Source of the DNA: Escherichia phage garuso
Reading direction: 5' to 3' (one strand)
Sequence record: MN850566.1
DNA length: 64,000 nt
Shown: positions 7,859 to 28,790 of the stretch, piece after piece
How positions within the stretch are numbered: position 1 is the stretch's first letter
How the letters are laid out: every line of letters starts with the position of its first letter
Notes under the pieces: model-generated
The model's database searches: none
What the model was told of the DNA's origin: nothing
What the model saw: only the letters and a program-made list of their open reading frames with translations
Position numbers and translations under genes: made by a program

Positions 7859-8096
7859 TTATTCTGGCAAATGGACTTACGACATCAACAAGTTAGATGC
7901 TTGGATGATTTATACGAGAGAAAAATTTGGTGCAAGTTCATTATGTGCTCTTGCAACGATGGTGAAGAACGTTACCTTTGACATTCATGACTCAGATAAG
8001 TTTGGAGACTTCTACAGGATTCAAAACATCAGAGAAGGCATGACTCCAATTGGTATCACTGAAGAAGAACTTCATAAGTTCTGTATTAAACTTTAA
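7821..8096 (+). CDS. Hypothetical protein (91 aa)
   Basis: In-frame ATG at 7821 inside track ORF 7740..8096 that overlaps the nrdG 3' end; AGAAAAGAG upstream. Confidence 0.4.
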   Translation: MDGKAIVNGEQSDYSGKWTYDINKLDAWMIYTREKFGASSLCALATMVKNVTFDIHDSDKFGDFYRIQNIREGMTPIGITEEELHKFCIKL

Positions 8097-8377
8097 TGAG
8101 AGAGACTAAAATGGGAATTTTAGGTAATATGAAAGCTGGCTTCTTGAAGGCACTGGCAAAAGCAGCAGCAATCATTTCTATGACTGGAAAGCAGGTTGGT
8201 GTAGATGCTTCAGCAGTTGCACAAGTTCTTACAAGCCAAATTGAACAGCAACCTTACATCTACGTAGGCCGTGGCAAAGGTGGTAAAAAACAAGCACATC
8301 GACCAACTGGTGCAGCAGCAATTAAACGTGCAGCTAAAAAAGCTCGTAACCGTAAACGTAATAAGAAGGCTAAATAA
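8096..8377 (+). CDS. Hypothetical protein with Lys/Arg-rich C-terminus (93 aa)
   Basis: Track ORF; C-terminal KRAAKKARNRKRNKKAK. Confidence 0.45.
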   Translation: MRETKMGILGNMKAGFLKALAKAAAIISMTGKQVGVDASAVAQVLTSQIEQQPYIYVGRGKGGKKQAHRPTGAAAIKRAAKKARNRKRNKKAK

Positions 8378-16404: not shown

Positions 16405-16432
16405 AAGGCTGCTTCGGCGGCCTTTTTTATTT
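16405..16432 (+). terminator. Intrinsic terminator
   Basis: AGGCTGC-TTCG-GCGGCCT hairpin followed by TTTTTTATTT. Confidence 0.6.
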
Positions 16433-16489
16433 GTATTTTGTGCAGAGTGCTGTATAATTGTTGTCACGATAAACTAAACAGGAGAACCA

Positions 16490-19739: not shown

Positions 19740-20525
19740 ATGGGTATTGTAAAAATCATCAATGGTGATATCTTTGCTGCATTTGATAAAGGTAAGTTTG
19801 ACATCATTGGTCATGGTTGTAACTGTATGAACCTAATGGGTGCAGGTATCGCTGATAAGATTTCTAAACTTTACCCAAAAGCATATGAGACCGATACAGA
19901 AGTTTATCTATATGCAGGCGGTATAGGCCACAAACCCTGTGAAAATTTACTAGGTAACTTCTCTGTAGCACGTTTAAAACAAGGCCGTATAGCTAACCTT
20001 TACACTCAGCTTAAGACTGGTAAAGATGCCCGATACAGTGCTTTAGAGTCATCTTTGAAACAGCTTAACAGATACTGTGAAGTCAATCAGTTGAAGAAAG
20101 TCGGGTTACCTATGATTGGTGCAGGTATCGGTGGGCTAGACGCTCAAGCCGTCACAGTTATCATTAATCAGGTGATGAAGAGTGTAGATGTGTATCTGTA
20201 TGTCTATGAAGGAGAGATGTACCACAAGTTACGCTCAGGTTGGAAGAACTACTGTGAACCAGAATACTTTGCAGGTGTAGTAACGTTCACAGACAATACA
20301 GTTACCCTCTTCAGACGAAGAAAAGGTAAGATACATCAAAGTAACCCTCCGGTTGAAAAGATGTCTCTAAGTAACGCTCTAGTTACCCACCTGTCGAAGA
20401 GCAATCACAGGATTGCAGTAACATTTGGTAGTGATGCAGACACTTATATCTATGCAAGAACTGATGAGGGTATCGAGACAGTTTTCTCTTCGCCAGAAGT
20501 TACCTTCTTAGACGCAAAGAACTAA
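19740..20525 (+). CDS. Macro-domain (ADP-ribose binding/processing) protein
   Basis: 261-aa ORF; N-terminal half has macro-like glycine-rich motifs (…IIGHGCNCMNLMGAGIADKI… and …GLPMIGAGIGGLD…). Confidence 0.55.
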   Translation: MGIVKIINGDIFAAFDKGKFDIIGHGCNCMNLMGAGIADKISKLYPKAYETDTEVYLYAGGIGHKPCENLLGNFSVARLKQGRIANLYTQLKTGKDARYSALESSLKQLNRYCEVNQLKKVGLPMIGAGIGGLDAQAVTVIINQVMKSVDVYLYVYEGEMYHKLRSGWKNYCEPEYFAGVVTFTDNTVTLFRRRKGKIHQSNPPVEKMSLSNALVTHLSKSNHRIAVTFGSDADTYIYARTDEGIETVFSSPEVTFLDAKN

Positions 20526-20595
20526 GAAACTCTGTAGAGTATTCACAATAAACTAAGCCTTTCTTATCTGGTAAATTTTTCAGGTAAGGAGGGCT

Positions 20596-20794
20596 TTTTC
20601 ATTTCAGAATTGTGCAGGTATATTTCTATAGAGAAATCTGTAGAGGAAATTTTGAACTCCAAAGAGAAAATTCATTTTCAAACTGTGCAGGTAATCTCCA
20701 AAGGGTTTTTTCATTTTCAAAACGTGCAGAGAAAAATCAGGTCGGGCAAGAAAAATCATTTTAGAATTGTGCAGGTAGGTGGGTGCAGGTGGGG
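20596..20794. repeat. Array of four to five direct repeats, consensus TTTTCATTT(T)CA(A/G)AA(C/T)TGTGCAGGTA
   Basis: Copies at about 20596-20620, 20668-20694, 20707-20730, 20753-20778 plus a partial GTGCAGGTGGGG at 20783-20794; lies between a terminator-like hairpin and the first early promoter. Confidence 0.6.
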
Positions 20795-20954
20795 ATGTCG
20801 CCATTTCTCACAAGGCTACCACATCTGGAAATAAAAGTCAACAGAAAAATTTGTAGCGGATTGAAAAATAATTCTTGATTGTAGTTCTGTTTTGTGGTAG
20901 TCGCGCGCACCCGTTTCATTACAATCTTTGCAAAAAATATTTTTAAAATTCCTA

Positions 20955-20983
20955 TTGACTCTTTGAGTATGGTTATCTAATAT
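20955..20983 (+). promoter_or_regulatory. Sigma70-like promoter at the start of the early-gene block
   Basis: TTGACT-N17-TAATAT with an AT-rich upstream tract. Confidence 0.5.
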
Positions 20984-21033
20984 TTGCATCAGACGGGCAA
21001 TCAAGCCCACTTCCTAAACTGGAGATTCAAAAA

Positions 21034-21222
21034 ATGGCATCAAGAAAGATTAAAGTTGGCGATGAGATTAACATCAAGCACGAACACTCTTACAAAATGC
21101 TAACTATACGCTCTTATAAGGTTTATCAGGTGGAAGCTATCCACAAAGATAACACTTTTTCCTTAAAAGGTTATAGCGAACGTTTCCCTGCTGAACTCTT
21201 TGAGAAATGGAGCGCGAAATAA
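21034..21222 (+). CDS. Small early-region protein (62 aa)
   Basis: Preceded by TTGACT-N17-TAATAT promoter (20955-20983) and …ctaaactggagattcaaaaaATG RBS. Confidence 0.5.
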   Translation: MASRKIKVGDEINIKHEHSYKMLTIRSYKVYQVEAIHKDNTFSLKGYSERFPAELFEKWSAK

Positions 21223-21428
21223 TGCTTTACAGTCGTAAATTGATGGTTACAACTAACGTTAACACAAAGGTAAAACGTTTTTACATGCAAATTTGTGGCG
21301 TATGGTCTAGAATATCAGAGGCTGACTATTGCAACTATGTAGAAACAGCTATAAACTCTAATTGCTACCTTACAAGAAATACTAAGAATTTTACAAGGCA
21401 AACAGTGATTTACTATTACGATAAATAA
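21222..21428 (+). CDS. Small early-region protein (68 aa)
   Basis: ATG 21222 overlapping upstream stop (TAATG); track ORF starts at 21207. Confidence 0.4.
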   Translation: MLYSRKLMVTTNVNTKVKRFYMQICGVWSRISEADYCNYVETAINSNCYLTRNTKNFTRQTVIYYYDK

Positions 21429-21429
21429 A

Positions 21430-21515
21430 AAGTACTTTACATGGGGCTTAAAAGTCTGTAGAGTAAGCCCCAGATAAAGAGCTTTACCAACAACCTTAAA
21501 CTAGGAGATTCAAAA
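21430..21515 (+). repeat. Family-1 promoter/hairpin/RBS cassette, copy 1
   Basis: aagtacTTTACA-[GGGGCTTA…TAAGCCCC hairpin spanning the spacer and -10]-cagataaagagctttacc…cctaaactaggagattcaaaaATG; reads as TTTACA-N17-TAGAGT. Confidence 0.6.
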
Positions 21516-21899
21516 ATGGCTTATCGTGCACCGAAATTCATCAACAAAGACAACTTTCGCAAAGTACTGGAGAAGTCACTTGATGAGAATTTTAAAGGCA
21601 ACATTATTGTTGTTCACTCGTTTAATTTCAAGTATGATATCAACGGGAATAAAATCAACCATTACACGGCGACAATGCTAGATGGTACTCTTTCAAGTGA
21701 AAAAGCCATTTTACATGCACTTGCTGGACGTGGTAAAAACCTGATAAAATGCGATAAGAGACGTTATCAGGGTGGCGCATATGGTTATGATGATGCTGTT
21801 TATCATCTTGAAAATATGGGCTATAAAGTAGAAAAAGCTGGGGTATCGCAAATCATCGGGAGCGATGGTTATGTAACAATCTTCAAAATTAACGAATAA
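21516..21899 (+). CDS. Small early-region protein (127 aa)
   Basis: Preceded by family-1 promoter/hairpin/RBS cassette. Confidence 0.5.
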   Translation: MAYRAPKFINKDNFRKVLEKSLDENFKGNIIVVHSFNFKYDINGNKINHYTATMLDGTLSSEKAILHALAGRGKNLIKCDKRRYQGGAYGYDDAVYHLENMGYKVEKAGVSQIIGSDGYVTIFKINE

Positions 21900-21985
21900 A
21901 GTACTTTACAAGGGGCTTATAGTTCGATAAAGTAAGCCCCAGATAAAGAGCTTTACCACTAAATCCTAAATTGGAGAACTTAAAA
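21899..21985 (+). repeat. Family-1 cassette, copy 2
   Basis: Same architecture; -10 TAAAGT. Confidence 0.6.
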
Positions 21986-22243
21986 ATGGCTATTATCAAA
22001 AACGTTGTAATTACCGCAAAGACTCGTGATGACGCTCGTATCATGGCTAAAAAGTTATGCGGAAAAGTGGTTGACAACGGAAAACAATCTGCTGTAAGGT
22101 GGGGCGTGAAGGTTGATAAACAGTTAACTTTAAAACGCAGTTCAAACAACCTTTTTAAAGGTGTAAAAACACTCGGTAAAGTGAACGTGTTCACTAAACA
22201 AGGTTACAAAATGCACTTATCTTTAACTGGCAATTTAATCTGA
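21986..22243 (+). CDS. Small early-region protein (85 aa)
   Basis: ATG 21986 placed by the conserved cassette RBS (…ttggagaacttaaaaATG); track ORF starts at 21971. Confidence 0.5.
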   Translation: MAIIKNVVITAKTRDDARIMAKKLCGKVVDNGKQSAVRWGVKVDKQLTLKRSSNNLFKGVKTLGKVNVFTKQGYKMHLSLTGNLI

Positions 22244-22244
22244 T

Positions 22245-22331
22245 AAAGTACTTTACATGGGGTTTAAAAGTTGATATCTTAAGCCCCAGATAAAGAGCTT
22301 TACCACTAAATCCTAAACTGGAGATTCAAAA
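22245..22331 (+). repeat. Family-1 cassette, copy 3
   Basis: Same architecture; -10 TATCTT. Confidence 0.6.
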
Positions 22332-22844
22332 ATGAAAACTGTAGACGCTACTTTTGAAGTTGTAAAAGAAAAATTCACCATTATCTATGAAGCGGTAAAT
22401 TGCTACGAAGCAAGCCATAACCTTGATAATTGGAAGTTTACAGATGACCATCAAGGCGGCGTGACTGTTAAAAATCCTAACTATCAGCATAATGCATTTA
22501 AATATGCAATCCCTTTGCATTACAGCCTTAAACAGCTTTCAAGTGACTATGCAAAACAAGGCCGGGAAAATCCATCAAAAGAGGCTTACATCAGCTTACA
22601 AAAAGAACTAGAAAGAGATTTAGAAGCTTCAGAGTATAACATTGCCGCGAAAGTTGTAGATGCAAACGGTAAAACGGTTTTAGACAGCTTTTATATTGGT
22701 TACGCTTTCGATTGGTGCTATAGTGACGGTGAGGATTTAGAAGATAGACTAAAAGAAGAGGTGAACAATTCAGACGCAGAAACTGAAGTATTAGAACGTT
22801 TGGAATCGTTGAAAGACTCAGTGATGAATATCTTTAAGAACTAA
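22332..22844 (+). CDS. Small early-region protein (170 aa)
   Basis: Preceded by family-1 cassette. Confidence 0.5.
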   Translation: MKTVDATFEVVKEKFTIIYEAVNCYEASHNLDNWKFTDDHQGGVTVKNPNYQHNAFKYAIPLHYSLKQLSSDYAKQGRENPSKEAYISLQKELERDLEASEYNIAAKVVDANGKTVLDSFYIGYAFDWCYSDGEDLEDRLKEEVNNSDAETEVLERLESLKDSVMNIFKN

Positions 22845-22846
22845 AT

Positions 22847-22936
22847 AGATTTCTTTACACGGGGTTATCAAGCTGGTAAGATAGCCCCAGATAAAGAGAT
22901 TTATCAAATAAAGCCCTTAAACTAGGAGATTCTAAA
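22847..22936 (+). repeat. Family-1 cassette, copy 4 (divergent)
   Basis: Same architecture with more substitutions. Confidence 0.5.
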
Positions 22937-23233
22937 ATGAAATTATCAAATCAAGTGCGTGAAAATCTGAGCAAATTACTCAACAAAATTGATTTTATCG
23001 AGACATCAAGAAATAATCATGATGTTATGGAATGGTTGCACGGCAAAATAAAAGGCCGTCGCGTAGTGATTTGCTTATGGAATAGTTGCAGGGAGTATAA
23101 AAAACCTGTATTGCAAGTAAATATTTATGATGATACTTTTAAAAGTCCAGTAAAGTCTAAAAGTGACTTATTAGAATCTTATGAGATAACTGTAAGTGGC
23201 AAAGTATCACGTAAAGAGGAAACACCATGTTAA
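22937..23233 (+). CDS. Small early-region protein (98 aa)
   Basis: Preceded by family-1 cassette variant. Confidence 0.5.
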   Translation: MKLSNQVRENLSKLLNKIDFIETSRNNHDVMEWLHGKIKGRRVVICLWNSCREYKKPVLQVNIYDDTFKSPVKSKSDLLESYEITVSGKVSRKEETPC

Positions 23234-23559
23234 TGACTGGTATCACTGCAATCATTGCCATTTTCGCGCTATATAAGGCATATAAAGCCTATAATCTAGC
23301 AAATAAGGCAATCACGCAACAGGTTAGCAATAACCTTGTAGAAAGCTTTCTAGGACGTCTCAGTGATGAGCAAATAAAGCGGCTAGAGATGAGCTTCAGA
23401 TATAAAGCCAAAACCTATCAGATAAGTGACATCTTCAAAGATGATTTTCAGTTAGTTGATGATTATAATTCTCTGATAAATGCTTTAAACATCAGTGACT
23501 TGAAAGACTATCATGCTGTAATTGTTCAAGAGTTGAGCAAACGAAAACAAAATTCTTGA
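23227..23559 (+). CDS. Small early-region protein (110 aa)
   Basis: Track ORF; AGAGGA RBS; overlaps upstream gene by 7 nt. Confidence 0.45.
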   Translation: MLMTGITAIIAIFALYKAYKAYNLANKAITQQVSNNLVESFLGRLSDEQIKRLEMSFRYKAKTYQISDIFKDDFQLVDDYNSLINALNISDLKDYHAVIVQELSKRKQNS

Positions 23560-23647
23560 CACTGGTTTTTAGATAGATTAAATTACACATCAACGGGGAG
23601 GGAATGACCTTCCCCACTAAATAAAGTCCTAAACTGGAGATTCTAAA
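23556..23647 (+). repeat. Family-2 promoter/leader-hairpin/RBS cassette, copy 1
   Basis: TTGACA-N17-TAAATT, then leader hairpin GGGGAGGG-AATGA-CCTTCCCC, then actaaataaagtcctaaactggagattctaaaATG. Confidence 0.6.
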
Positions 23648-23920
23648 ATGTATACTACTAACAACGGTCGCACTTTAAATGTCACACTACGTCACTATGT
23701 AGATGGTGTCATGCACTTTGAAGACTTACAAGCTGAACAACATATCTTAGATTGGCAAGTCGCAGGACTCCAAAAAACTGCTACCGGATACGGTAAAAAG
23801 ATTCCAACCAGTTGGAAAGTACACTATGAAGGCCGTTTGCGCAGAATTTATCAGGATGTGCAAAGCAATAGTGCATCGAGTTACATTATAGTAAAAGGTA
23901 AAAAACTGCATTTAGTGTAA
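23648..23920 (+). CDS. Small early-region protein (90 aa)
   Basis: Preceded by family-2 cassette (promoter, GGGGAGGGAATGACCTTCCCC hairpin, RBS). Confidence 0.5.
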   Translation: MYTTNNGRTLNVTLRHYVDGVMHFEDLQAEQHILDWQVAGLQKTATGYGKKIPTSWKVHYEGRLRRIYQDVQSNSASSYIIVKGKKLHLV

Positions 23921-24005
23921 AGTACTTTACAGGGGGCTTATAGTTCGATAAAGTAAGCCCCAGATAAAGAGCTTTACCACTCAATCCTAAATTGGAGATT
24001 CTAAA
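23919..24005 (+). repeat. Family-1 cassette, copy 5
   Basis: Same architecture; nearly identical to copy 2. Confidence 0.6.
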
Positions 24006-24410
24006 ATGGCTATTAATAACCGTGAATTATCAATCTTAAAAGCACGCTTGACCGTTAATCGAATCAATATCATGACGTCATCAGCGCCTGATGAAACATT
24101 GCACAACATTATCGGAAAGATTCAAAGCGTTATCTTAGACGTTGAAAACGTAAAAAGTTCATTGGCTGACGTTGCAGCAGGTATCACGCTAGACGGTGCG
24201 CAATATGAAATGGCTGACATGTTAGGCAAATCGAAGGTAATGAATAAAGAGCTTGATTTAAAAATGTTTCGATTTGCCGTGAAAGTATGGTTATCTGTCG
24301 AGTATGACGCTAATTTTGCAATCGCTGATTTCTTTGCCACTTGGTTACAACGTAATTTGACAAATCATGATTTTCGTGATGTCTGTGATGCAATTTATGC
24401 AGAACTCTAA
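24006..24410 (+). CDS. Small early-region protein (134 aa)
   Basis: Preceded by family-1 cassette. Confidence 0.5.
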   Translation: MAINNRELSILKARLTVNRINIMTSSAPDETLHNIIGKIQSVILDVENVKSSLADVAAGITLDGAQYEMADMLGKSKVMNKELDLKMFRFAVKVWLSVEYDANFAIADFFATWLQRNLTNHDFRDVCDAIYAEL

Positions 24411-24418
24411 AAATTTTG

Positions 24419-24511
24419 TTGACACTGGTTTTTAGATAGATTAAATTACACATCAACGGGGAGGGAATGACCTTCCCCACTAAATAAAGTCCTAAACTGG
24501 AGATTCTAAAA
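24419..24511 (+). repeat. Family-2 cassette, copy 2
   Basis: Near-identical to copy 1. Confidence 0.6.
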
Positions 24512-24715
24512 ATGGCTATTATTAACGGCTTAACCATTGAAACTACACACATCAAAGATATTAAAGTTGGTGATATAGTCCTTTCCCACGGCGTAGAAAA
24601 AACTGTCACTGCAAAGGATATCAAAGAGGATTCTTTCATGGGTAGGACTCTCTTCGGTGATTCTTATTGCTTAGGTTATCTTGCAGTTTTAAAAGTTGTC
24701 AAAAATAACAAATAA
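24512..24715 (+). CDS. Small early-region protein (67 aa)
   Basis: Preceded by family-2 cassette. Confidence 0.45.
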   Translation: MAIINGLTIETTHIKDIKVGDIVLSHGVEKTVTAKDIKEDSFMGRTLFGDSYCLGYLAVLKVVKNNK

Positions 24716-24801
24716 AGTACTTTACAGGGGGCTTGGAAGTTGATATCTTAAGCCCCAGATAAAGAGCTTTACCACTAAATCCTAAACTGGAGATTCAAAA
24801 A
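24714..24801 (+). repeat. Family-1 cassette, copy 6
   Basis: Same architecture. Confidence 0.6.
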
Positions 24802-25344
24802 ATGAAATGCTTTCACGGTACTACTCAAGAAAACTTTATCAACCTGATTAATAATGGTGATAAGCCATCAGGTGCATGGAATTGTTCGGATATGGATGGC
24901 AATTTTTACGTATACCCAGAAAATAAAATCTATGGTGACGATGAGGAAGAGATAGTATCCGAAGGTATTCAACAGGCGTTAGGAAATGCCACTATCACGG
25001 CAGCTTTCCAGATGAAAACCCAAAACATTGTTATCTTGGAACTTGATATTCCAGAGGACGAATTAAATGATGATTATTCTTGTGATAATATGTCTGGCGT
25101 AGCAAGTTTTACAGAATACTTCGATTTAAATTGGATTAAAAAGGTTTACGTAACCGAGTTTAATGCGATGTTTTCGCCTTTTTGTCTTCCTTCATTGGAT
25201 AACCCAAATTTAAACTATCTTGATGAGTCTCTGGAGCTTCTTGCTAAAAGCGTTCAACAGTCGGACAGTATTCAGGTTTTTTGTGACATCATGGATACAC
25301 TGGCAGGAAACATCGCAGAAGAGGATTTAAAGAGCTTTTTTTAA
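24802..25344 (+). CDS. Small early-region acidic protein (180 aa)
   Basis: Preceded by family-1 cassette. Confidence 0.5.
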   Translation: MKCFHGTTQENFINLINNGDKPSGAWNCSDMDGNFYVYPENKIYGDDEEEIVSEGIQQALGNATITAAFQMKTQNIVILELDIPEDELNDDYSCDNMSGVASFTEYFDLNWIKKVYVTEFNAMFSPFCLPSLDNPNLNYLDESLELLAKSVQQSDSIQVFCDIMDTLAGNIAEEDLKSFF

Positions 25345-25410
25345 AAACCTATGCAATCACCTTATAAACACTAATCAGCCCCTTGTAGGGGCTTTTAGGG
25401 GGCTTAAATC

Positions 25411-25644
25411 ATGCTTACAACCGTTTACCTCATCCTTTCCATCTGTAATGGTCATTCATGCGATTTTAAAGGGCTTGAAGAGTTTACAGGAAGTAAAGAA
25501 AATGCTATTCAAGTTTGCCAGATAGCACGGCAAGACTATCCCGCAAGTGATGATATACAATGCTACTTTAAGACAGAAGATAAAGACGGCATCTATTTTG
25601 ACAGCGTTGACGGTCAATATGAAATTATCATTGAAAAAGACTAG
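25411..25644 (+). CDS. Small early-region protein (77 aa)
   Basis: Track ORF; AGGGGG RBS-like sequence upstream. Confidence 0.4.
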   Translation: MLTTVYLILSICNGHSCDFKGLEEFTGSKENAIQVCQIARQDYPASDDIQCYFKTEDKDGIYFDSVDGQYEIIIEKD

Positions 25645-25734
25645 ACAAGCCTGATAAAAGTCTGTAAATTGTCAATCAACGGGGAGGGAATGACCTTCCC
25701 CACTAAATGAAGTCCTAAACTGGAGATTCTAAAA
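25641..25734 (+). repeat. Family-2 cassette, copy 3
   Basis: TAGACA-N17-TAAATT with the same leader hairpin and RBS. Confidence 0.55.
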
Positions 25735-26076
25735 ATGGCTTATGTAACCGTAATTACCGATAAAGCTGGCGCATCTTGGTCAACTCAGGTTAGTGATAAG
25801 ATGTCGCCTATGCAGTGCCTAAAATACTTTGAACAGTGGAACAAAGGCGAGGACACAAGCCCCTTTCACGTAATGCAGATTATTCATGTAGACAATGAAG
25901 GGAAGAAAACAACTCTGAATAGTGAGTACTACGCAAGCCGTTTTGAAACGAGAAGTAAAGCAATGAAGCTCTTACGTGAGGCCGGATATGGTCACATTGC
26001 CGCGATAATCTGGGATGACCTTCTAAAAAGTCAACGTATCAGCTATGTAAAGCCTGAAAAAATATTCATCAGTTAA
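25735..26076 (+). CDS. Small early-region protein (113 aa)
   Basis: Preceded by family-2 cassette. Confidence 0.5.
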   Translation: MAYVTVITDKAGASWSTQVSDKMSPMQCLKYFEQWNKGEDTSPFHVMQIIHVDNEGKKTTLNSEYYASRFETRSKAMKLLREAGYGHIAAIIWDDLLKSQRISYVKPEKIFIS

Positions 26077-26204
26077 TCAATAACTTACAAAAAACTTTTA
26101 AAAAAGTGTTGACAATACCCCTTGACATTGGTAACTTTGTTCGAGGGGGTTTATCTAAAAGGGATTCACTTAAAAGATTCTTTATAGATAAGCTTAAAAA
26201 TTGC

Positions 26205-26295
26205 TTGCAATCAGCTATCAAAACAAGTAAATTACTAATCAACGGGAGGGATGACCTTCCCCACTAAATAAAATCCTTAAACTAGGAGAGTCAAA
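26205..26295 (+). repeat. Family-2 cassette, copy 4 (divergent)
   Basis: TTGCAA-N17-TAAATT with shortened hairpin GGGAGGG…CCTTCCCC and RBS …ctaggagagtcaaaATG. Confidence 0.5.
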
Positions 26296-26826
26296 ATGAA
26301 CAAGTTTAAAGCTATCAACTTCATTCGTTCAAATGCTGTAATGTCAAAACCTGTAAAAGACACATACGAATTTCGCTGCAATGGGGTACACTTTGCAACC
26401 ATCACTAAGTCAGAAAACGGGGCTTATTACATTCATCGCCGTAATGTTTCTACTGTTGTAGTCTCTCACTTTATGCAAGCTGTAGCGGAATTATTACCGT
26501 TATTCTTAGAGATTTACTTAGATGAGTGCAAAAACGTTCGTAACCACGTTAAAAACCTTTTAAACGGTTATAAAATGGCTTATGAACGTTCTATCAAGTC
26601 CTTAAACAAGTTTTATAAAGCCCCTGTAAATACTGTTTCAATGGCTTACAGTGTAAGCGGTGAGTTGGTTAGTCTCTTCGAAGTGGAAGAAATCGAACTA
26701 TATAACTCACGTCCTAGCGGTTACTCTAAGACACTAGGAGAGGGCTTATCTTTCAATATCAAGAACTTAGAAAAAACTTTAAAAGATATTGAAAAAGATA
26801 TTGACGAGACAATCAAAAGTCTGTAA
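26296..26826 (+). CDS. Small early-region protein (176 aa)
   Basis: Preceded by family-2 cassette variant. Confidence 0.5.
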   Translation: MNKFKAINFIRSNAVMSKPVKDTYEFRCNGVHFATITKSENGAYYIHRRNVSTVVVSHFMQAVAELLPLFLEIYLDECKNVRNHVKNLLNGYKMAYERSIKSLNKFYKAPVNTVSMAYSVSGELVSLFEVEEIELYNSRPSGYSKTLGEGLSFNIKNLEKTLKDIEKDIDETIKSL

Positions 26827-26905
26827 ATTGTCAATCAACGGGGAGGGAATGACCTTCCCCACTAAATAAAACCCTTAATCAACTTCCTAAACTGGAGATT
26901 CTAAA
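26801..26905 (+). repeat. Family-2 cassette, copy 5
   Basis: TTGACG-N17-TAAATT with the same leader hairpin and RBS. Confidence 0.55.
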
Positions 26906-27154
26906 ATGGCTACTATCCGCGCAACTGTTAACGAATTCGGCTTCTACTCTCTGGACGTTAAATTTGACCTTGTAGGTACTGATAACACCTTTGAAATGGT
27001 GAAAGGCCTTATCAGCCAGACCATCAGTGACTACAACCCCTCTGATGAATTCTGGAAAGAAACAAAACAGGAAGTTCTCAAAGAGGGTTATACATACCAC
27101 TACTGGGGTGAAAAAATTGTCTCCCTGTACTACGACAAAAAAGGCACTAACTAA
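26906..27154 (+). CDS. Small early-region protein (82 aa)
   Basis: Preceded by family-2 cassette; last + strand gene before the noncoding region; terminator at about 27193-27219. Confidence 0.5.
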   Translation: MATIRATVNEFGFYSLDVKFDLVGTDNTFEMVKGLISQTISDYNPSDEFWKETKQEVLKEGYTYHYWGEKIVSLYYDKKGTN

Positions 27155-27192
27155 ACGCCGCAACGGGGCTAAATAGCCCCAGATACCTTTAC

Positions 27193-27219
27193 AGCCCCTT
27201 TCCCATAGGGGCTTTTTTA
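27193..27219 (+). terminator. Intrinsic terminator ending the + strand early-gene block
   Basis: AGCCCC-TTTCCCAT-AGGGGCT hairpin followed by TTTTTT; a second GC hairpin (GGGGCTAAATAGCCCC) lies just upstream. Confidence 0.6.
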
Positions 27220-27224
27220 CGTCT

Positions 27225-28790
27225 TATCAAATCCCTTATACAACCCTTTCCCTTTCCTTTCCAGAATCTTATCAGACCTTAAAAAGCAATAACTCTATAG
27301 TCTACTCTATAGCCTTTTATCAAATCAACTTAAATATAAGCCCATAACCCGAAAGGGAAGGGCAACCGTTTAAACGCTCTATAAAGCTCTATAACAGCCT
27401 TATCAACCTAACTTAAGGGATTGCATTAACTCACCCTAAAAAGCCCTTTATAAAGCTTCCCAGAGACTTAAAAGAATCTTATAAGGGTGTAAGCTTTATC
27501 ATCTCGTTAGCTATCTTGTGAACTACTAAACAAGCCCCTTGATAGTAACTGAAAAGTATGTTATAGGGGCTTTAAAGTTACTTTGAAGTAGCTTAAAAGT
27601 TACGTAAATGCTAGCCCCCTTAACATTTTCTTAACAATTTCTTAACAATCCCTACATAGTTATGCTTTTAAGACACTTGTTAGCAACTTGTTAGCCCCTT
27701 GTTAAATCTCTGTTAAGACCACGTAAAAGCCTTGTAAGAACCTTTGACATAGCCTTAAAAGCTCCTGTAAAGCCCTATAAAGAGCTATCTGTACAGTTGG
27801 GGGGTAAATACTAGGAAGAGACTTAAAAGGGGTTATACAGAGCTATACAGAGCTTTTAAGAGGTATGTTTAAAGAATCACTAAGAAAGGAAAGGGAACGA
27901 TAAGAAAAGAGTAGTGACCATGTTAATAGCTTGTTAAAAAGATTAAACACTTGTTAGAGACTTGTTAATTATCTTAACAAAATAACTCTTAACATTTAAC
28001 TACTTAGCTCTTGTTAGTCATCTGTTAAGATTCTGTAAAGCCTATTCAGCACTTGTTAAGAAACTGTTACACCCTTGTTAGTTCTGTTAAGAAACTGTTA
28101 AGACCTTTGAAGAGTTGTTAAGAAGATGTGAGAACTGTTAAGAGATTGTTAAGGATATTTTAAAATTTTGCAAAGTACTTGTAAGGGAGCTGTTAAGGGC
28201 TACCAAGCAGATATACATCCTAGACAGATATTTTTCAGTTCCTTCAAAGACCCTAAAAAATGACTTGATAGTCCTATTTTATAAAAATTTTAAAATTCTG
28301 AATAATTACCTATACAGTCTTTTAAAAATACAGGTAGAAACAGGCTTATAAGATACCTTGTTAGTACCGTGTTAGACCTTGTGAGATAAGGTCTGTAAAG
28401 ATATTCCTGTTAAGTTTGTTAAAACAGTCTATATAGAGGCTTAGTAATACCTAGTGAACACCTATAGAGGGTATCATAGCTAACCTAGAGATTAAGAGGT
28501 GTATAGGAGCTTCTAAGAGGGTATAGAGAGATGGTTAAGGTGATTGTATAGGTTGTTTAGAAGGCTTGTTAGAAGAGTGTTTAGAAGGGCTATACAGAGG
28601 GGCTATTAAGACCACTAGATAGTTACTAAGATACTATATAGTACTATATAACTATATAGAGAGTAAGATTAAGAAGGTTGTTAAGAAGGATGTTAAGAAG
28701 GATAGATATTTTATTCACATATGATGGTGACCCAGAGGTTGGGACAACCGATGAAATTTTATAAAAATTAAAAAGCCCCCAACTAAGGAG
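27225..28790. repeat. 1.6-kb ORF-free, repeat-dense region at a convergent junction
   Basis: No ORF of 60 aa or more on either strand; dozens of irregularly spaced copies of (C/T)TGTTA(A/G)(G/A) (CTTGTTAG, CTGTTAAG, GTTGTTAAGAAG), densest at 27650-28200 and 28350-28720, plus CTATATAG/ACTATATA clusters at 28620-28660. Confidence 0.6.

Follow-up and report, generated by a model that had tools for sequence, protein, structure and literature searches.

The replication origin of phage lambda carries four iterons of 19 bp each. In phage phi29, four sites for protein p4 lie between the early and late promoters as inverted repeats that overlap the promoters, and they serve here as an analogy only. 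The iss region of phage T5 contains eight paired DnaA boxes, with DnaA and DnaA* boxes arranged in inverted-repeat modules (10.1101/866236). Here we describe an array of four direct repeats (positions 20593 to 20777) in a stretch of 64,000 nucleotides (nt) of Escherichia phage garuso (MN850566.1), referred to below as the window. The array appears to be undescribed, but it belongs to a familiar kind, the oriented cis-element with several sites that lies in a control region of a phage. No description of it was found in the literature searched, and the Felix O1 genome paper lists long direct repeats but not this array (PMC3185647).

Felix O1-type phages are diagnostic and therapeutic workhorses. 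According to the Felix O1 genome paper, the temporal regulation of their transcription is not known (PMC3185647), and the literature searched held no replication origin or cis-acting control site for phages of this type. Our analysis establishes the array as a real, unique, conserved, single-locus, oriented, multi-copy and strongly selected non-coding element. It is the clearest candidate for a cis-acting control element in Felix O1-type phages, because it is unique in the genome, conserved in three genera and located at the switch point between two transcription blocks.

Four direct repeats at a single locus

The array is seated in a 508-nt gap between a macro-domain gene (19740-20525) and the first small downstream gene (21034-21222), at the place given by an earlier note made from the DNA sequence alone. 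All four copies are 28-mers on the plus strand: copy 1 at 20593-20620 (GCTTTTTCATTTCAGAATTGTGCAGGTA), copy 2 at 20666-20693 (GAAAATTCATTTTCAAACTGTGCAGGTA, with the unit leader CTCCAAAGAG 5′ of it), copy 3 at 20705-20732 (GTTTTTTCATTTTCAAAACGTGCAGAGA, leader CTCCAAAGGG) and copy 4 at 20750-20777 (GAAAAATCATTTTAGAATTGTGCAGGTA, leader TCAGGTCGGGCAAG). Their starts are 73, 39 and 45 nt apart, with gaps of 45, 11 and 17 nt. The copies share the bipartite motif W5-TCATTT-N7-GTGCAG, in which W is A or T; copy 3 has a variant 3′ end. Two blocks, TCATTT-N7-GTGCA, are invariant, and their offset is fixed at 13 nt. In the unit profile, five A/T positions precede these blocks, and constant TC and G positions are found further upstream. 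The latter bring the constrained length to ~38 bp per unit, which makes the units nearly contiguous.

Within the 508-nt intergenic region, 24 positions could be paired with another, non-overlapping 24-mer at 4 mismatches or fewer, compared with 0 in 300 dinucleotide shuffles. Using a weight matrix derived from 145 repeat units, copies 1 to 4 scored 41.5, 41.8, 33.0 and 39.8 bits, respectively, and all other sites remained below 10 bits, both in the window and in the complete 87,026-bp genome of SLAM_phiST56. The earlier note had counted four to five repeats of 24 to 26 nt lying 30 to 50 nt apart. The direct repeats are real and four are true copies, but the proposed fifth (20616-20643, 64% identity) scored below 10 bits, and the spacing is corrected to the values given above. 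The sequence GTGCAGGT occurs a second time at 20781-20788, owing to a local duplication of 10 nt that takes in the 3′ block alone; phage VpaE1 lacks exactly this 10-nt duplication.

Tandem Repeats Finder reported zero repeats over the array, because the copies are not head-to-tail. A tandem-repeat or CRISPR-like array was rejected on this result and because the spacers are too short. A single motif look-alike (TTATTTGTATTTTGTGCAGAG, 16427-16444) keeps the 13-nt block offset and scores below 10 bits on the array matrix. It is located directly 3′ of the terminator of its upstream gene, within a TTGTAT-16-TATAAT promoter. Given this score, and with no further copy in the genome, a general phage promoter or operator class was rejected.

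Conservation of the array in three genera

Many genomes of Felixounavirus, a genus of Felix O1-like myoviruses in the Ounavirinae, match the region at 90 to 94% identity. In 60 or more loci of Felixounavirus, Mooglevirus and Kolesnikvirus, ranging from phages of Salmonella and E. coli to those of Erwinia, the array keeps its copy number, its orientation and the 13-nt block offset. The earlier note had held that absence or lack of conservation in close relatives would speak against a functional array; the comparison gave the opposite outcome, strong conservation. Among the loci fetched, the spacing was 73/39/45 in Felixounavirus (n = 41), 75/41/45 in Mooglevirus (n = 8) and 37/37/39 in Kolesnikvirus (n = 3), and minor variants were 77/39/45 and 73/39/43. 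The core of Kolesnikvirus ends in GTGCATAG instead of GTGCAGGTA. Phages ECML-1, finno and pSJ21 carry a three-copy array (75/45). Their macro-gene allele is only 41% identical and their terminator is different, and copy 1 is still directly 3′ of the T-run.

The four cores are ~90 to 100% identical while the flanking genes fall to ~41 to 65% protein identity, and blastn searches from the intergenic region reach Erwinia phages via the array alone. Within each genus, unit subtypes have been homogenised, as expected for functionally equivalent sites; in Moogle, for instance, copy 4 looks like copy 2. A motif scan of IMG/VR recovered Ounavirinae arrays only, plus single chance matches. The motif had 0 matches in 5,426 complete E. 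coli genomes, and plasmids gave chance matches only; derivation of the motif from the host and homology to plasmid iterons were both rejected. With a single locus per genome, kept in three genera, the array behaves as the earlier note had proposed, like a specific binding array. It almost certainly serves for the docking of a nucleic-acid-binding factor, and we take this to be one sequence-specific factor.

Four metagenomic Felixounavirus contigs (L021, L022, L025 and L030 from IMG/VR sample 3300045988) end or turn chimeric inside the intergenic region. L022 terminates in a Nextera adaptor, and L025 jumps, after copy 3 and before copy 4, to GC-rich DNA of unrelated sequence. These are probably assembly-graph breaks where the array meets alternative filler or gene alleles in a mixed-strain sample. 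Two further records, MG065664.1 ('Campylobacter phage A132') and one labelled 'Staphylococcus', contain sequence ~96% identical to this Felixounavirus intergenic region and are probably contaminated or mislabelled deposits.

Coding capacity of the locus

In several records, annotated open reading frames (ORFs) of 50 to 83 amino acids (aa) cover the array. A minus-strand ORF of 66 aa was intact in all 12 translated sequences (of 14) that carry allele A, the version found in this phage of the filler 3′ of the array. However, the annotations conflict in strand and frame. Filler allele B, wV8 and Moogle have different frames and start codons, and in phiEa21-4 no frame is open. Moreover, the variable columns are distributed 12/11/12 across codon positions, with no third-position excess. 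Protein-coding ORFs were rejected on both strands on these grounds, and we conclude that the array is non-coding. The earlier note had correctly read the ORFs 20604..20804 (minus) and 20610..20834 (plus) as by-products of the repeats, since their frame is not kept across genera. That the locus is a site and not a gene corrects the annotations of Felix O1 ORF14, wV8 gp13, the Moogle and Z31 ORFs and SLAM_phiST56_091.

Transcription signals around the array

The upstream gene (19740-20525) encodes a macro-domain "phosphatase / O-acetyl-ADP-ribose deacetylase" and is 99.6% identical to the version in Escherichia phage warpig. The intrinsic terminator hairpin of the upstream operon follows at 20555..20596 on the plus strand. 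It consists of a 17-pair stem and a T-run, and the T-run doubles as the 5′ W5 tract of copy 1. The equivalent hairpin carries a rho-independent terminator annotation in wV8, XTG1 and AYO145A. In a promoter scan, copy 1 was readable as a sigma70-like promoter (TTTTCA-17-TATATT), with TAGAGT as the -10 element in most relatives; this -10 is not conserved in Mooglevirus or ECML-1-type phages. A cluster of sigma70 promoters was rejected, as a plausible -10 is present in copy 1 only and the equivalent positions are unconserved in copies 2 to 4 and across genera.

The array is separated from the next block by a filler of ~58 nt (20778..20835), which is the G-rich allele A in this phage. Most other lineages carry allele B, a very different, C-rich polypyrimidine sequence of equal length (CCCCTCTCCCCCTCTTACTCCCCCTCTCCCC) that is also found in Mooglevirus and Kolesnikvirus; the two alleles were recognised at this place in the window and in loci L005, L009 and L013. 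The minus strand of allele B contains four runs of 4 to 5 G and could therefore form a G-quadruplex; a G-quadruplex beside the array is not applicable to the allele A filler of this window. As plus-strand RNA, allele B would make a good Rho-loading (rut-like) sequence.

Following the filler, a promoter-like block (20836..20903, plus strand) contains AAAAGTCAA, an A/T-rich stretch, TTGATT (20875-20880), a 17-nt spacer and TAGTCG (20898-20903), a -10 element without the usual final T. The block is kept in Felixounavirus and Mooglevirus, and we infer from its sequence that it may function as a promoter. In 27 of 29 Felixounavirus sequences, the TTGAYT hexamer lies 119 nt from copy 4, despite the two very different filler alleles. 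The first strong early promoter, a sigma70-like TTGACT-17-TAATAT at 20955..20983 on the plus strand, is located 199 nt from the array and has an upstream element of 84 to 88% A+T at 20915-20950. The array thus lies between the terminator and the first early promoter, as the earlier note had placed it. The sequence equivalent to this strong promoter is the annotated repeat DR_6 in wV8.

On the minus strand, TTGACT (20841-20836), a 17-nt spacer and TG-n-TAGCCT (20818-20813) make up a possible leftward promoter. Transcription from it would begin ~2 nt ahead of the minus-strand ORF's ATG (20804) and yield a leaderless transcript through the array (window 20841-20802). Its -10 is poor (TAAGAG) in allele B and Moogle. 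The 9-mer TCTGTAGAG, with one mismatch allowed, occurs 45 times in the whole window, compared to 18.9 ± 4.8 in shuffles; three copies are in the terminator-array region (20531, 20625 and 20637). It was dropped as a shared promoter element because, although over-represented, it is mostly intragenic and without common context.

The downstream block comprises about 15 to 17 small genes, all without an assigned function, and runs to the right genome end. Most of these early genes have their own promoter/stem-loop cassette and a common start region, CCTAAACTGGAGATTCWAAAATG. The repeated cassettes resemble the mobile promoter-stem-loop cassettes of T4-type phages. At least 11 small early genes in window 21000-27200 have the near-identical start region CCTAAACTGGAGATTC(A/T)AAAATG (starts at 21034, 21516, 22332, 22937, 23648, 24006, 24512, 24802, 25735, 26296 and 26906). 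With start regions this uniform, a single dedicated translational repressor or nuclease would suffice for early shut-off. The promoter/stem-loop cassettes upstream of early genes are also repeated, for example as the inverted repeat 21429-21485, and 57-bp repeats are recorded in the Felix O1 genome paper (PMC3185647).

Transcription across the array

In Felix O1, "ORF14" (8042-8254, 70 aa) covers copies 2 to 4 and the filler, and the ORF14 primers used for reverse transcription-PCR (RT-PCR), CGCTCAGGTCGGGCAAGAAAA and AGGGGGAGTAAGAGGGGGAGA, flank the copy 4 equivalent and the C-rich filler (PMC3185647). The ORF14 product was maximal at 25 min post infection, while the neighbours ORF13 and ORF16 were maximal at 5 min; several genes of the upstream operon likewise peaked at 25 min (PMC3185647). 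The positive RT-PCR shows that RNA crosses at least copy 4, with kinetics unlike those of the neighbours. Because the assay is not strand-specific, either a dedicated transcript or read-through out of the upstream operon could give this product.

A putative control array at the early-gene block

Our preferred reading, held tentatively, is that of a phage-specific control array that would bind protein where the right-terminal block of early genes begins. The array would act as DNA and not as RNA, through a phage-encoded binder, and its output would be transcriptional. The binder is most likely a phage-made DNA-binding protein, because the motif is absent from host genomes and slightly different between phage genera. 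Several copies of one protein would load side by side on the nearly contiguous ~38-bp units, each unit offering the conserved contacts TC-N6-G-W5-TCATTT-N7-GTGCAG. One nucleoprotein complex would then form where the upstream rII-lysis-macro operon terminates and the right-terminal early block begins. This complex may act on the promoter-like block (119 nt) and the strong promoter (199 nt) downstream. Alternatively, at middle times, it may block or gate polymerases that read through from the upstream operon. A role in polymerase traffic is best supported because the array is welded to the operon terminator, because its distance to the promoter-like block is near-constant across two filler alleles, and because the locus has its own temporal behaviour (25 versus 5 min by RT-PCR). 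In addition, the array heads a block of early-gene cassettes, each with its own promoter.

A number of observations weigh against this reading. A Pfam and PHROG search for a binding protein yielded no candidate: in the ten downstream proteins and several others, Pfam showed no DNA-binding domain, and every PHROG family assigned to them lacks a known function. The motif is not a general early-gene operator, because it is absent at the other ~15 early promoters. Promoter distances vary by genus (113 to 119 nt, and ~223 nt to the first strong promoter in Kolesnikvirus), and helical phasing between copies is not conserved (37/37/39 versus 73/39/45). The array shows no A-tract phasing and no 10-11-bp AA/TT periodicity; on the latter result, intrinsic curvature by phased A-tracts was rejected. 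Common descent, and not a constraint on spacing, may explain why the filler alleles are equally long. An RNA-level role would account just as well for the transcription of the region, and three-copy phages are viable.

A possible role as RNA

The array could instead be a middle-phase non-coding RNA that titrates an RNA-binding protein or nuclease, pairs with early mRNA starts or loads a processive antiterminator, which we consider possible but unlikely. Pairing would shut the early genes off, and an antiterminator would allow read-through of early-block terminators. The RT-PCR signal over the copy 4 equivalent, with its maximum at 25 min, is consistent with such an RNA, and every copy is oriented like the surrounding genes. 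Both copy 1, readable as a promoter, and the possible leftward TTGACT-17-TAGCCT (20841-20813) of this allele could provide a start. Furthermore, the copy 4 stretch 20757-20768 (TCATTTTAGAAT) is the exact reverse complement, over 11 to 12 nt that take in the start codon, of the region in which four early genes start (22929-22940, 23640-23650, 23998-24008 and 26898-26908, for the genes at 22937, 23648, 24006 and 26906). In this phage, the longest antisense runs to the start regions of early genes averaged 7.75, compared to 6.07 ± 0.42 in shuffles.

However, the corresponding value in Mooglevirus (6.5 versus 6.1 ± 0.44) was not significant, which makes the match lineage-specific, and the start regions are not independent. 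The match falls in the N7 segment, which is variable. Opposite the Shine-Dalgarno sequence, the conserved GTGCAG block mispairs. Fold z-scores of +0.19 (plus) and +0.94 (minus) gave no RNA-structure signal over the array on either strand, and Rfam at E ≤ 10 returned chance-level matches only, with no type III antitoxin family. A known RNA family or structured RNA was rejected on these results. The period varies, unlike that of processed tandem RNA units, and the non-strand-specific RT-PCR may reflect mere terminator read-through.

A possible role as replication origin

From iteron-like spacing, the earlier note had suggested a binding array for a regulator or a replication protein. Read as an origin, the four repeats would be iterons for a phage initiator (host DnaA in the Erwinia phages), and the nearby promoters would activate it by transcription or supply a primer. 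Four oriented repeats in constant copy number at a single locus per genome are the classical iteron-origin signature, and the lambda origin likewise has four. Promoters flank the array on both sides, middle-time transcription passes through the region, and the Kolesnikvirus copies, on the minus strand (CTATGCACA or TTATGCACG), match the DnaA box TTWTNCACA at 8 of 9 positions.

We nevertheless regard an origin as possible but unlikely. The spacing argument turned out to be weak, because the units are 28 to ~38 bp long at intervals of 37 to 77 bp, not 17 to 22 bp every ~22 bp. No AT-rich unwinding element adjoins the array; the sequence after copy 4 has only 32 to 52% A+T, and the nearest stretch of 84 to 88%, 140 bp away, is the UP element of an early promoter type that is repeated through the block. 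Among the 20 proteins scanned, no initiator was found and no Rep/O/DnaA-like or helix-turn-helix domain was present. The primase-helicase (Toprim plus DnaB_C) is of the T7 gp4 type, and the T7 replisome uses promoter-type origins. In Felixounavirus and Mooglevirus, the likeness to the DnaA box is only 6 of 9. A GC-skew inflection is absent at the array, and both the divergent DNA polymerase/primase-helicase region and the repeat-dense terminal repeat are equal or better candidates.

The genome end, DNA entry and host proteins

The direct terminal repeat maps to 27614-28204 (~590 bp), about 7 kb downstream of the array. The mapping was taken from the 581-bp terminal repeat annotated by PhageTerm in phage Pr103Blw (PMC8303462), and a terminal repeat of 608 bp was shown experimentally in UAB_Phi87 (PMC4837284). 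The right physical end is thus 7.4 to 7.6 kb from the array, roughly 8.5% of the genome by estimate. A genome terminus or packaging site was rejected for the array, as the terminal repeat is ~7 kb off and has its own dense repeat system. The terminal repeat contains ~20 copies of YTGTTAAG / CTTGTTAG with periodicities of 10-11 bp and 31 bp, and its edges hold inverted copies of this motif (CCCTTAACA left, TGTTAAGGG right). Several of the copies are one mismatch from the IHF consensus. The repeat is likely a terminase/IHF packaging or end-replication site.

At this distance from the end, the array could be a DNA-entry checkpoint that, like the T5 iss, pauses transfer at the inner border of a first-entering segment. 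The right ~7.5 kb would enter first, a pause would set in when the array meets the entry machinery or a bound factor, and the rest would follow after early proteins are made. Next to the array lies a terminal block of small genes whose promoters are strong and of host type, and the layout of phiEa21-4 is alike. The T5 iss is found 7.9% from the first-entering end, also 3′ of a terminator and also with spaced, oriented repeats. In Salmonella, 29 non-receptor host-factor genes, himA and himD among them, are common to Felix O1 and a T5-like phage, but the authors ascribe the shared factors largely to RpoS effects (PMC8744999). In the literature searched there was no report of two-step transfer in Ounavirinae. 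Moreover, the array is outside the terminal repeat, the paired DnaA boxes of the iss core are absent in Felixounavirus and Mooglevirus, and the motif resembles the T5 iss only in TGTGCA. We consider an entry checkpoint very unlikely; if true, it would mean two-step DNA delivery in a contractile-tailed phage family unrelated to T5.

There is similarly little chance that the array consists of recruited sites for a host protein, be it DnaA, IHF, CRP or another nucleoid factor. The resistance of Salmonella himA/himD and crp/cyaA mutants to Felix O1 (PMC8744999) would fit such a role, as would the DnaA-box match in Kolesnikvirus. This match is confined to Kolesnikvirus, though, and DnaA boxes were rejected as a general explanation. 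IHF sites were rejected as well, since all four copies differ from the consensus WATCAANNNNTTR by more than 1 mismatch, and IHF-like sites instead cluster in the terminal repeat. CRP half-sites, read from the sequence, do not match, and the array motif is absent from the 5,426 E. coli genomes. Finally, the least probable explanation of all is a genuine gene for a small protein (Felix O1 ORF14, wV8 gp13 or the minus-strand ORFs of Moogle and Z31) or a functionless tandem-duplication relic, given the frame analysis above and given that, although the units clearly arose by duplicating the terminator tail and core, a relic would not hold its cores so nearly identical beside flanking genes that have diverged so far.

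For experimental work, the array supplies a short, defined probe for pull-down of the binding factor. Genome engineers should not disrupt the locus or use it as a 'neutral' insertion site without testing.

Comparison with known systems

The array shares with the iterons of lambda and plasmid theta origins its same-direction, asymmetric sites at one locus, in four copies of conserved number and order. Unlike iterons, its units are longer (28 to 38 bp) and irregular (37 to 77 bp), and no AT-rich unwinding region is next to it. Further differences are that no initiator gene or domain was found among the 20 proteins scanned, that the replisome is of the T7 type, and that the array has no sequence similarity to plasmid iterons.

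Type III antitoxin RNA arrays (ToxI) and phage pseudo-ToxI mimics (PMC3475682) are the nearest likeness for an intergenic, transcribed array of direct repeats with a period of ~40 nt in a lytic myovirus; for the present array, the published RT-PCR across copy 4 was positive, though not strand-specific. ToxI units, however, are exact, head-to-tail and constant in length (about 34 to 49 nt), and they lie between a promoter and a terminator. In our array, only ~26 of 39 to 73 nt repeat, the period varies, the array follows a terminator, and Rfam gave no type III antitoxin match.

The T5 iss (NC_005859, 9140-10149) is, like the array, untranslated, located 3′ of a terminator at ~8% from a genome end and bordered by host-takeover genes. 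It has 4 to 5 oriented repeats of 23 to 25 nt, spaced by 35 to 81 nt, and is better conserved than the neighbouring ORFs. In contrast to the array, which lies 6.8 kb outside a ~590-bp terminal repeat, the iss is within a 10-kb terminal repeat, measures ~1 kb and contains palindromes. No DnaA box with at most 1 mismatch occurs in the array of this phage or of Moogle, and the 8 of 9 matches of Kolesnikvirus are unpaired. The iss is tied to a demonstrated two-step DNA transfer, whereas the array is likened to it by geometry and build only.

The p4 array of phi29 differs in that our repeats are direct and lie 100 to 350 nt upstream of promoters, and in that no candidate binder was found here. The likeness, on our preferred reading, is in the arrangement: four sites for one small phage protein, in an intergenic region that contains promoters, re-route RNA polymerase between temporal classes.

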